Part shown: positions 11,431 to 14,873 of the stretch, one piece after another
Position numbering within the stretch: position 1 is the stretch's first letter
How the letters are laid out: every line of letters starts with the position of its first letter
Assembly: GCA_020348985.1 (NCBI GenBank)
Contig: CP070761.1
Coordinates: 2,563,445 to 2,627,444, forward strand
Length of the DNA stretch: 64,000 nt
Origin: Candidatus Thorarchaeota archaeon
GTDB lineage: Archaea; Asgardarchaeota; Thorarchaeia; Thorarchaeales; Thorarchaeaceae
Direction of reading: 5' to 3'
Program-made: the position numbers and the translations under genes
Notes under the pieces: model-generated
What the model was told of the DNA's origin: nothing
Databases searched by the model: none
Seen by the model: the letters and a program-made list of their open reading frames with translations, nothing else

Positions 11431-13248
11431 CTAGGATTCGTCGTTCTTGGAGCTCTGACTGTCAAGGCGATTGTTCTCTTCAGATACACCATCATCTGTA
11501 GGTACTGTGTCGAGAATTCCCAATGCCCTTTCGAGGTCTGTACGCATCTTATCATCAAGATCTTCCAATGGCTCTACCTCGCCGTCTAGAAGTACAACCT
11601 CCTCGCAAGAGAACGCTTCGAGGGCTGTTTCGAGTTCTTCTTTGGTTGCCTTTTCAATCTCTTCCGATACTAGATCGTCTGCATCAAGAGCCTCCGATAT
11701 CAGTGCGCGTGCCATCATCGATCCGTTTGATTCATCTGCGCTTGTCTCAATTTCGCTTTCTTCGATAAGAATAGGAACTGCCTCCTCAACTTCATCGTCA
11801 GATATAGTGACTACATCAAAGTCATCAGATGCTTCTACGGGGACCATCTCTGGTGCGATTCCTTCAACAACCACATCATCTTCAACAGCATCTTGGACTG
11901 GTATCTCGATTTCACGCTCCTCCAAATCGGCTGAAAGCGCAGCATCAACTTCAATGAAGAATTCCTCAATGGCATCCATTTCTGAGACATCCGAAACAAC
12001 AGGAGATTCTTCCGTCACAGCCGCCATGTGCTCTACAATCTCTTCTGTTACAAGATCCTCATCGAAGTGTTCAATCTCATCCTCAGCACCACCAACTTCA
12101 GGTACATCGGGGATAACAGAGGGTTCTTCAGCCACTACCTCGACAGGTTCCTCGAAAATTCCCTCGGCTTCTTCTGAGTCAGGCTCCACATCGACGTACT
12201 CAATAACTTCTTCAACGATTTCGTACTCATCTGCGTCCTCAATTATCCGACCATCTTCGTCAACGAGGATTTCTTCTACAATCTCAACTGTTTCGTATTC
12301 CTCTTCAACCTCTTCTTCTGAAACAGCAGAGGCTATTACCGCAGCTGCTTCGACAGCTTCTTCTGAGAACTTGAGCAGCTCAGAGGCTGGAAGATCAGGC
12401 AACGCCACTCCGACATACTGCGCAGCAGCTGTCATTAAGATGCGAAGCATCTCATCTCGACGGCCCTTGTCAATTGCAACCATTGGATAGGTCGGAATTC
12501 CTAATATCTTCTGAACCACCTCAGGTTTCATAGCATTTGGTTTGTCTTGCTTGTTAGCTATTGCGAAGACAGGAACCTTGGGTGCATCTCGCTTTATCAG
12601 TTTGAGAATGTCTTTGCTGATTATCACATTCCTTAGGGTTGAATCGCACACGAGAATGATAACATCAGCACCGTGGAAATAAAACCGCCAGAGTGTTCGG
12701 AATCTCTCTTGGCCTGCGAAATCCCACAGAACGAGTGAGTAGTTGCCGAAACGGATGTTCTCGACAGTCTCAAGGTTGAGTGCGATTGTAGGAACGTATT
12801 GAAGGGGAGGTGTGTCACCCAGGAGGAGATGAAGAGTAGTTGTCTTCCCTGTACCGCCCTCGCCAACCAGCGCTATCTTCAGCCTAGTAACCACCGAAGG
12901 CTCGATTATCTCCTCGAATCTCTCAAGCACGCTATTTAGATCGGCTCTTTCAATCTCAATAGTAAGATCGTGGGCTGCTTTCTTGACACGGTCTTGAGTG
13001 CTGAGCTCATCTTCACCCTTGTCTGTGACAAACACAAGAATTGAATCATCATTAACTTCGCTGCCCATGAACTTGTTCTGATCGATCACCAGAGGAATAT
13101 CCTCTAGTGCGTCATGGTTTTCCGCTAGCTCCTCTCTTGTTGAAATGTATTCTTCAATCTCGCTGGCCCCCACCTCAACTGGCCAGTACTGAACAGATGA
13201 GAGAATCTCATTGTCGTCCAGTCGGATAAGGAAGGCATTATGAATCAT
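11431..13248 (-). CDS. Arf-like small GTPase with N-terminal longin-like domain and ~300-aa acidic tail
   Basis: GEGGTGKTT, YVPTI, WDFAGQERFRTLWRFYF, NKQD; E/D/V-rich C-terminal half. Confidence 0.85.
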   Translation of the reverse strand: MIHNAFLIRLDDNEILSSVQYWPVEVGASEIEEYISTREELAENHDALEDIPLVIDQNKFMGSEVNDDSILVFVTDKGEDELSTQDRVKKAAHDLTIEIERADLNSVLERFEEIIEPSVVTRLKIALVGEGGTGKTTTLHLLLGDTPPLQYVPTIALNLETVENIRFGNYSLVLWDFAGQERFRTLWRFYFHGADVIILVCDSTLRNVIISKDILKLIKRDAPKVPVFAIANKQDKPNAMKPEVVQKILGIPTYPMVAIDKGRRDEMLRILMTAAAQYVGVALPDLPASELLKFSEEAVEAAAVIASAVSEEEVEEEYETVEIVEEILVDEDGRIIEDADEYEIVEEVIEYVDVEPDSEEAEGIFEEPVEVVAEEPSVIPDVPEVGGAEDEIEHFDEDLVTEEIVEHMAAVTEESPVVSDVSEMDAIEEFFIEVDAALSADLEEREIEIPVQDAVEDDVVVEGIAPEMVPVEASDDFDVVTISDDEVEEAVPILIEESEIETSADESNGSMMARALISEALDADDLVSEEIEKATKEELETALEAFSCEEVVLLDGEVEPLEDLDDKMRTDLERALGILDTVPTDDGVSEENNRLDSQSSKNDES

Positions 13249-13374
13249 CCTTCAAGGTCACCAGCCAGATTTCACAAGTCAATTGCGAATCAGCAATCCA
13301 TCTGTGTTGAGATATGGATAAATCGATTGACATGTATCTAATAGTTTGTGGTGTATATGTCCTATTGAGCGTCT

Positions 13375-13634
13375 GTTAGACTAGCTCAAATTCGTAAGTA
13401 GGAGCGGGGCTCGCCCAGCCGAAGCTGATAGTGGCGAACCGTATCCGCATCCGTGACACGCTTTCATCGGAGCATGCGAAAGAACTCAGTTCTTTATGCG
13501 CAAGTATTGGAGTGGCAATCTCGGGGAAGATGCCACAGGGGACCAATGCTTGGAAACTCGCTAGGGGGACCGTGCATTGCAGTGCGAGTTTCCATGACGG
13601 GGGGAAATCGCACATCCCGATAAGAGCAGTCAAC
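13375..13634 (-). ncRNA. Candidate structured non-coding RNA (~260 nt), unassigned family
   Basis: 5' GUUGACUGCUC pairs with 3' GAGCUAGUCUAAC; five internal helices; cUUCGg tetraloop on the minus strand; BRE/TATA-like AAGGTTATTAG 27-30 nt upstream; overlapping ORFs look spurious. Confidence 0.6.
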
Positions 13635-13653
13635 ATGAAGAGAGGCATACTGG

Positions 13654-13667
13654 CCTAATAACCTTAC
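13654..13667 (-). promoter_or_regulatory. Putative BRE-TATA promoter for the candidate ncRNA
   Basis: GTAAGGTTATTAGG, similar to other upstream motifs in the window (e.g. AAGGGGTTATAT at ~21181, AAAGGTTTAG at ~22785). Confidence 0.5.
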
Positions 13668-13712
13668 TCCCCTTCACCTAGTGGAACCGCTTGAACACTA
13701 GCCAGGGCAGTT

Positions 13713-14873
13713 TTACCGCGGGAAGTTGTCCCTCAGTAGTCTCAGATGATGGTGGACAAGCTCCATCTGCTTTGCGTCGTCAGGAGTCTTTTCAAGCTCC
13801 ACGATTAAAGTCTGAAGGAAGTATTCGGGGAAGAATAATCGCACACGAATATCGTTAAGCAAGAAGAGCCATTTATCGTACTCGCCAGATGGTCCCTTTC
13901 TTCTCTTTTCGGAGACTACTCTGAATTTCTTTAGCGTCTGAACGGCTGTTTTGAGCTCCTTCGGAGGAATGCCCAGGGTAGCTTCTAGTTCGGATATATT
14001 CACTGGCCTACGTCGGAGGACTACTAGCGTGTCGTAGGCATCGGGATCAGCCAAGATTGAAGCAACTGATACAGTATCCTCAGGTGTCTTTTTCCATTCT
14101 GTGAGGAATTCGAGTACCTCTCGTTTGTACTCAGCGGCGAGTTCCGGATCCAGAACCTGATTTGCAGCCTCCATCGCCATCAGCGGAGGAGCACGGAAGA
14201 CTTCTAGGTCCTTTATCATGAACACACAGGTCCGGCCAATTTCGTCGACCCATTCACTCTTGACAAGTCCGAGTTCCTCAAAGGGTGAGAGGATCGAATC
14301 GACACTGACGCTTGGAAGACCAGTTACCATCTTCAACCATTCTTCTAGCTCTTCTTTGGATATGCCACCCTTCCAGAGCTTCGGAAACACGGCCCTAGAG
14401 ACTTCCTCTGAAAAGAGACGAGCTAAGCGGCTCTCATCAGCCATTCCCGCGAGCCGGATGATCCTCCTGTAGGTGTTATCAAGCTCGCCCTGCAGCTCTG
14501 CATCAGTCATAGAAATTACTGCATTAGTTATGGGTGAGACGACCGATGTTATGGCCGCCTCAAACATCTTGGGGTCTTCGCCTGTTGTAAGAAGCAGTGA
14601 GATGCAATACTGCTCCTCTTCACGAACAATACCAGTATAATATGATGCAACTTGGTATTCCTCTCCCCCAATCCTGACGCTCAGTGATGCAAAACCTGCA
14701 GTGGCGTCTCCCATGGCGTGAGATGTGAAGATCCTCATAATCTCTGTGTTCAAGTCCTCTCGGTATCCATCCGCAAAATTCGCGGGCACCTTAGTCTTGA
14801 GGACTGCTCCGATTTTGCTATCCCAATCTATCAACAAGAGGGCTACGGGCAAGTACAGTATCTCCTTGTCCAT
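13713..14873 (-). CDS. uDENN/longin-like domain protein with winged-helix domains
   Basis: N-terminal LLLIDWDSKIGAVL...YQVASYY...YCISLLL (uDENN/longin-like); wHTH-like PVNISELEATLGIPPKELKTAVQTL. Confidence 0.6.
   Translation of the reverse strand: MDKEILYLPVALLLIDWDSKIGAVLKTKVPANFADGYREDLNTEIMRIFTSHAMGDATAGFASLSVRIGGEEYQVASYYTGIVREEEQYCISLLLTTGEDPKMFEAAITSVVSPITNAVISMTDAELQGELDNTYRRIIRLAGMADESRLARLFSEEVSRAVFPKLWKGGISKEELEEWLKMVTGLPSVSVDSILSPFEELGLVKSEWVDEIGRTCVFMIKDLEVFRAPPLMAMEAANQVLDPELAAEYKREVLEFLTEWKKTPEDTVSVASILADPDAYDTLVVLRRRPVNISELEATLGIPPKELKTAVQTLKKFRVVSEKRRKGPSGEYDKWLFLLNDIRVRLFFPEYFLQTLIVELEKTPDDAKQMELVHHHLRLLRDNFPR

Follow-up and report, generated by a model that had tools for sequence, protein, structure and literature searches.

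The window, a 64,000-nucleotide stretch of a Thorarchaeota genome, carries a gene for a structured RNA of approximately 247 nt (13388..13634, minus strand) that matches no described family, is confined to one Asgard class, the Thorarchaeota, and is independent of the genes that lie beside it. The gene is probably a free-standing one whose product, a stable structured RNA found only in the Thorarchaeota, acts in trans and would bind a partner through its C-rich junction strands. Few large structured archaeal non-coding RNAs are known to us beyond rRNA, tRNA, RNase P RNA, SRP RNA and the guide RNAs, and we know of none that any Asgard lineage has to itself. Such a molecule, kept across a whole class with compensatory changes in nearly all of its helices and invariant letters in its junctions, almost certainly carries out a specific and important cellular task. 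In current annotations of Thorarchaeota the locus is left empty or a spurious 90-codon open reading frame is called; the RNA is a concrete and well-delimited target and the covariance model is ready for use in annotating Thorarchaeota genomes.

The RNA lies in a gap without genes (13249-13712) that has minus-strand genes on both sides. A preliminary description of this DNA had picked out the gap as gene-free and filled with helices, and both points hold. The minus strand of 13375-13634 folds with an energy of -94.5 kcal/mol, compared with -73.1 +/- 4.2 kcal/mol for 200 dinucleotide shuffles (z -5.1), none of which folds as well, and the plus strand of the same segment has a z of -2.45. Among the paired cells of the homologues there are 213 G.U or U.G combinations against 67 A.C or C.A, which identifies the minus strand as the RNA strand. 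A covariance model, R1, was derived from a five-sequence seed through an RNAalifold consensus of 51 pairs; it matches 13391-13638 with a score of 244 bits. All features of the RNA described below are on the minus strand, and an RNA position is given by 13635 minus the window coordinate.

Upstream of the RNA a BRE/TATA promoter, GTAAGGTTATTAGG, is positioned at 13654..13667 on the minus strand. The box AAGGTTATTA (13656-13665), which had been noticed before, is real and is the local form of a motif, cTAGrAAGsTTCwTATGt, that is conserved in approximately 40 of the 47 homologous loci, where it is found 10-50 nt ahead of the model start. The centre of the TATA element is ~25 nt upstream of the predicted RNA start near 13634. 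A similar promoter box, GAGAAGTTCTTAATG, belongs to the RNase P RNA gene of the same genome. At the other end of the gene a short U run (UUU, 13388..13390, RNA positions 245-247), 11 nt past the 3′ stem-loop P7, is the likely end of the transcript. Relatives have a U3-U5 run after P7 in the same place, the run in the window copy being only 3 long. The exact ends of the transcript given here are to be read as predicted ones, and across genera the RNA is 190-290 nt long. With the promoter, the 3′ hairpin and the U run all conserved, and with the excess of G.U pairs, the earlier proposal of a discrete, multi-branched non-coding RNA on the minus strand is well supported. In one marine-sediment metatranscriptome library a 158-nt contig was found to consist of adapter remnants and a 142-nt insert from within the RNA, corresponding to 13479-13620 with one mismatch, which hints weakly at expression since DNA can occur in such libraries. 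Library X20 gave no contig over the flanking genes, and the uncovered part was not counted as evidence. The mismatch is G>A at window position 13574, which makes it C>U at RNA position 61, within the variable portion of the P3 loop; it probably reflects a difference between strains.

The RNA is closed by a long-range helix in two parts, P1 and P2, which shows the strongest covariation in the whole molecule. The 5′ strand occupies 13608..13632 (P1 13626-13632, P2 13608-13621) and the 3′ strand 13454..13479 (P2 13466-13479, P1 13454-13459), so that in RNA numbering P1 pairs 3-9 with 176-181 and P2 pairs 14-27 with 156-169. Both strands emerge from the RNAalifold consensus, the covariation and the mutual information, with double-sided changes in 14 of 14 pairs of P2 and in all 6 pairs of P1. 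The segment 13450-13471, previously read as a local hairpin, is instead the 3′ strand of this helix (13608-13632 with 13454-13479). A pairing of the two ends, GUUGACUGCUC with GAGCUAGUCUAAC, had also been proposed; it is there in the window sequence and in its MFE fold, but it is specific to the window's genome. It was left out of the conserved structure because its 3′ arm lies past the U run and because relatives pair the 5′ end with the internal P1 strand.

Within the closing helix, junction strand J2/3 (UUUCCCCCCGUCAU, 13594..13607) contains an invariant CCCGU and a nearly invariant CCCCGUCA in the alignments. It leads to the P3 hairpin (13551..13594, RNA 41-50 with 75-84), where the sequence of the stem, GGAACUCG/CGAGUUC, is conserved, 93.7% of cells are paired and double changes are seen in 8 of 10 pairs; the loop varies between 15 and 50 nt and ends in an invariant ACGGUCCC. 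The P4 arm (13500..13549, RNA 86-135) is made up of AGCAUUGGUCCCC, a variable hairpin and then CCAAUACUUGC (AAUACUUGC). Its distal hairpin differs in both length and sequence between genera, and the arm contains an extra covarying pair (columns 160/174) that is 97% paired. A nearly invariant strand, CUUGCGCAUA (13495..13504), takes in part of the 3′ base of P4 and of J4/2, and in most homologues a U-rich tract comes next. The 3′ terminal stem-loop, P7 (13401..13452, RNA 183-234), has a bulged U and a UUCG loop and is built from GGA(U)GCGG/CCGCUCC, GGUUCGCC/GGCGAGCC and CAGC-UUCG-GCUG. Approximately 96% of its cells are paired with double changes in 15 of 15 pairs, and in two genera there is a simpler hairpin with GGAUGCG pairing with CGCAUCC. 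Three of the stems listed in the preliminary description correspond to these helices, 13551-61/13584-94 to P3, 13501-10/13543-52 with its inner hairpin to P4, and 13404-13448 with the UUCG loop to P7, and all three covary in relatives. A fourth, 13479-85/13489-95, corresponds to P5, a small optional hairpin (AGAACUGAGUUCU, 13481..13493, RNA 142-154); this exists in the window and its genus but is missing in many other genera. Overall, the helices drift in sequence and length with their pairing kept, whereas junctions and loops hardly vary, the nearly invariant letters being CCCCGUCA, ACGGUCCC, RGUCCC(C), CUUGCGCAUA and CACGGAUG.

In the 47 homologues double-sided, compensatory changes are found in 47 of the 51 base pairs. 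The proportion of paired cells is 88.4%, against 72.4% in shuffles, a percentage that is inflated by fitting the alignment used for counting to the model, which the slid controls and the mutual information mitigate. The covariation score is 0.432; none of 500 shuffles scores as high (0.177 shuffled), and when the pairing partners are slid by 1-3 columns the score falls to 0.06-0.09. APC-corrected mutual information, which ignores the model, places pairs of P2 and P7 at the top with those of P2 the best. The same mutual information gives no tertiary or pseudoknot covariation, the conserved strands being without variation. The pseudoknot candidates CGCAA/UUGCG, CCGU/ACGG and CGUC/GAUG were rejected, as they show either uncompensated variation on one side or no variation on either.

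BLAST detected the RNA in 12 of the 36 genomes of the family that it covered, the matches differing by indels of one base. With model R1 it is found, mostly once per genome, in 75 of 86 genomes of the family and 76 of 87 of the class. A shorter core covariance model, R2, finds it in 22 of 26 family genomes, whereas 124 genomes representing 26 further Asgard families gave no match. A MITE or other dispersed repeat was rejected, there being one copy in the window's genome and one in most relatives. The suggestion that this might be an undescribed Asgard family agrees with what was found: Rfam searches of both strands returned no known family, the covariation is strong, dispersed copies are absent and the RNA occurs in one class only. 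Scanning a broad collection of contigs with a pattern gave, among the at least 120 matches listed, two that were true by nhmmer, both archaeal and labelled Thorarchaeota and "uncultured archaeon", the pattern being too loose to be informative on other phyla. In viral contigs none of the 67 pattern matches was real.

Extra partial copies of the RNA are found only in G002 and in genus g7. In G002 there are two mini-paralogues of ~125 nt (L017:1455-1600 on contig C304 and L015 on contig C112), which are 86% alike and have their own TATA box. These are closed by a stem, GGGCGUGG/CCACGCCC, and contain CACGGUCCCCC, AUUGGUCCCC-hairpin-AAUACUUGCRCAU and UUCCCCGUCA as modules; they fold with a z of -3.7 and were not found in 84 other family genomes. 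In g7 a 424-nt intergenic element (L305:2558-2981 in G008; also L309 and L310) is located ~2.5 kb upstream of the RNA. It holds UGCAAGGGGACCAA, which is an exact 14-nt complement of UUGGUCCCCUUGCA of the RNA or else the same module on the opposite strand. The element is conserved in three g7 genomes only and, being limited to one genus, does not explain the RNA family as a whole. Separately, G077 has two full-length copies (C103:178-382 and C21:38491-38713); this MAG has ~7% contamination, and the gene may be truly duplicated there or two strains may have been binned together.

The single copies, the 1-nt indels, the covariation, the promoter and the placement of a GNAT gene described below all count in favour of a free-standing structured RNA gene. 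As for what the RNA does, it has the generic features of a stable RNA that acts in trans within a ribonucleoprotein, namely its own promoter and terminator, a conserved structure and independence from its neighbours. We would envisage a transcript that is driven by a strong BRE/TATA promoter of its own and terminates past the 3′ stem-loop at the short U run. The long helix P1/P2 would then close a multi-helix junction bearing P3, P4 and sometimes P5. The helices are likely to be architectural, given that their sequences drift and their pairing is kept, and the C-rich strands may form a tertiary core or a docking surface for a partner that would most likely be a protein. The molecule would thus be the RNA part of a putative ribonucleoprotein, both the action in trans and the binding of a partner being inferred. 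Similar properties are those of OLE, raiA, ROOL and GOLLD, large orphan RNAs of bacteria and phages, which are also free-standing RNAs of at least 200 nt with many covarying helices and invariant junction and loop letters, are each restricted to one lineage and were likewise found by comparative genomics before a function was assigned. The Thorarchaeota RNA differs from them in having no match in Rfam 15 and in being archaeal, single-copy and without phage association, and it is smaller than GOLLD or ROOL.

The C-rich motifs could instead point to a regulatory RNA, in which UCCC and GUCCC would act by base pairing, in the manner of RsaE/RoxS or sRNA41 on G-rich ribosome-binding sites, or as a protein sponge of the CsrB type. 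We regard this as unlikely. GUCCC does average 2.28 occurrences per RNA, compared with 0.35 in shuffles, for UCCC the corresponding figures are 3.5 and 1.6, and several lineage-specific inserted hairpins bring in further copies of GUCCC. However, some of these further copies are paired rather than exposed and the enrichment comes mostly from the two conserved sites. Positions -20..-3 of 2487 long ORFs are dominated by the usual GGAGGTGA and show no enrichment of the complements GGGAC, GGGGA and UGGGA, and a genome-wide search for complementary or paralogous sites gave nothing beyond chance in the window's genome. Complementarity to 16S and 23S rRNA reached 9-10 nt for the longest perfect match, with shuffled queries reaching 9-13 nt. 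Like RsaE/RoxS of Firmicutes and sRNA41 of Methanosarcina mazei, the RNA repeatedly exposes C-runs (UCCC/CCCC) in its loops and junctions, but it is two to three times larger, its multi-helix junction is closed, many letters besides the C-runs are invariant, and start sites show no excess of sequences complementary to the C-runs.

A catalytic RNA, with the junction strands as an active site that processes the RNA itself or another RNA, is a slim possibility. Ribozymes and RNase P-like RNAs typically show invariant junction and loop letters within covarying helices, and the size and complexity are above those of ordinary base-pairing small RNAs, but the binding of a protein would fit the same pattern of conservation equally well. 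No ribozyme of Rfam 15 matches even at E<=10, and neither a cleavage-site signature nor an associated substrate was found. In its multi-helix form and its conserved single-stranded junction letters the RNA resembles archaeal RNase P RNA, with which it also shares a similar type of promoter in the window's genome, but it has no likeness to CR-I to CR-V and gets no score from the Rfam model. We think it similarly doubtful that the RNA is a subunit of a new ribonucleoprotein machine found only in Thorarchaeota, either catalytic or a particle of the Sm/Lsm type. The latter idea comes from a conserved single-stranded tract, GA(A)UUUU(C), between the P4/P5 arms and the closing helix in most homologues, taken together with the 3′ hairpin and the U tail. 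If true, this would be a new class of ribonucleoprotein in the archaeal lineage closest to eukaryotes.

The usual gene order is the gene for a 386-aa protein, the RNA and then a gene for a longin-Arf GTPase. The flanking genes had been named as DENN-like and GTPase, which was roughly right: the downstream product has an Arf-type G domain, but the upstream 386-aa protein (13713-14873, minus strand) has no Pfam match. In most genomes the RNA is co-oriented with the GTPase gene and 90-265 nt upstream of it, and the hairpin followed by Us resembles an expression platform. This might suggest a cis-acting leader, a riboswitch or attenuator of the GTPase gene with P7 and the U run as a conditional terminator, for which CGCAU in J4/2 pairing with AUGCG of P7 could provide an alternative structure. 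That pairing involves invariant letters only, however, and so has no support from covariation. In g5, g7, g12 and part of g11 a convergent gene for a GNAT acetyltransferase is situated between the RNA and the GTPase gene with the RNA unchanged. As the GNAT gene directly follows the RNA in g5, g7 and g12, the RNA there cannot lead into the GTPase gene and is not always in the 5′ leader of the gene that it would control. In g10 the GTPase gene is absent within 1.5 kb of the RNA, and in the window the gene has a candidate TATA-like box of its own (ACTATTAGATACATGT, 13330..13345, minus strand), with similar boxes in relatives. A leader is therefore very unlikely. The intervening GNAT protein has two domains and 304-368 aa (L033:1826-2932, L063:1727-2641 and L040:1703-2683, from genera g5, g7 and g12).

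The RNA is also, at most loci, 50-270 nt downstream of the 386-aa gene on the same strand, as would be expected for a structured 3′ UTR or a processed 3′ fragment of that mRNA. This origin seems highly improbable. The conserved BRE/TATA box separates the RNA from the stop codon, several genomes have 0.6-1.25 kb, once a whole gene, inserted between the 386-aa gene and the RNA, and the homologue of the 386-aa protein outside the Thorarchaeota has no such element, there being no RNA gap or element after the gene of the Njordarchaeota type. Taken together, the GNAT insertion and the upstream inserts show that the RNA is neither a leader nor a 3′ UTR. In six genera synteny extends over approximately 20 kb of the neighbourhood, and because of this synteny across the class the neighbouring genes are uninformative on the function of the RNA. 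The 386-aa protein is the best-conserved protein of the neighbourhood, with 80-96% identity across Thorarchaeota genera; it is annotated by JGI as an ArsR-family regulator, and its homologues in Njordarchaeota have 362 aa with ~30% identity.

That the locus encodes a known kind of RNA in highly diverged form (SRP RNA, RNase P/MRP RNA or an snRNA-like RNA) or a small protein is barely tenable, despite a size like that of SRP and RNase P RNAs, the lack of an SRP RNA match in the assembly and a 90-codon open frame (13376..13648, minus strand) that overlaps the RNA. The frame is judged spurious as no reading frame is kept: in 39 homologues the spacings between invariant anchors are uniform modulo 3 (14/13/12, 13/17/9 and 13/13/13), as are the lengths of the homologues (about 16/16/15). 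Rfam 15 contains 4227 models, including riboswitches, ribozymes, snRNAs, 6S, OLE, raiA, ROOL, GOLLD and HEARO. At the gathering score it finds only a tRNA in the whole window; there is no match at E<=10 on either strand of 13200-13760, and none at E<=5 for 16 diverse homologous loci. We found no description of the RNA in the literature.

Individual families were also considered. The RNA gets no score as SRP RNA (RF01857), and 57 of 61 relatives have an Archaea_SRP match besides it, those listed being on other contigs; in G001, for instance, the SRP RNA is at C36:3366-3678 and the structured RNA at C81:28649-28889. Archaeal SRP (7S) RNA is similar in size, in being a stable RNA gene with a strong promoter and in pairing its 5′ end with a distant 3′ segment, but the Thorarchaeota RNA lacks the Alu-domain and helix 8 motifs and in relatives coexists with canonical SRP RNA. 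The window's genome has its true RNase P RNA gene (RF00373) elsewhere, at C1:992421-992761 with 160 bits, and the RNA itself has no score with that model. No likeness beyond chance was seen to this RNase P RNA or to the SRP RNAs of relatives. A short motif, AGCA..GGUCCCC..UGCGCAUAA..GGAUG, resembles the internal stem-loop region of U6 snRNA, but an ACAGAGA box is lacking, genus g6 does not conserve the AGC, RF00026 gives no score and GGAUG pairs with CCGCUCC in P7, with covariation. An H/ACA guide was rejected because the triplet after P7 varies (UAC, GAU, UAA, CAC) and the internal loop of P7 is one-sided, and a C/D guide because inspection of the P1/P2 internal loop showed no GA/GA K-turn; neither has an Rfam match.

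Whether SRP and RNase P RNAs exist elsewhere in the genome had been raised at the outset, and the RNase P RNA does; the SRP RNA is present in relatives but the window's assembly gives no match to RF01857 or RF00017. This is an assembly gap, since the nominal single contig of 3.157 Mb consists of 132 pieces joined by 100-N spacers and the 16S and 23S rRNA genes are absent from it as well. Absences in this genome should for that reason not be read as biology. In a relative, G011, the 16S rRNA match (L110, C2:589938-592348) spans 2411 nt for a model of 1478 positions, so that this Thorarchaeota 16S gene appears to hold an insertion of roughly 900 nt, which may be an intron or an expansion.
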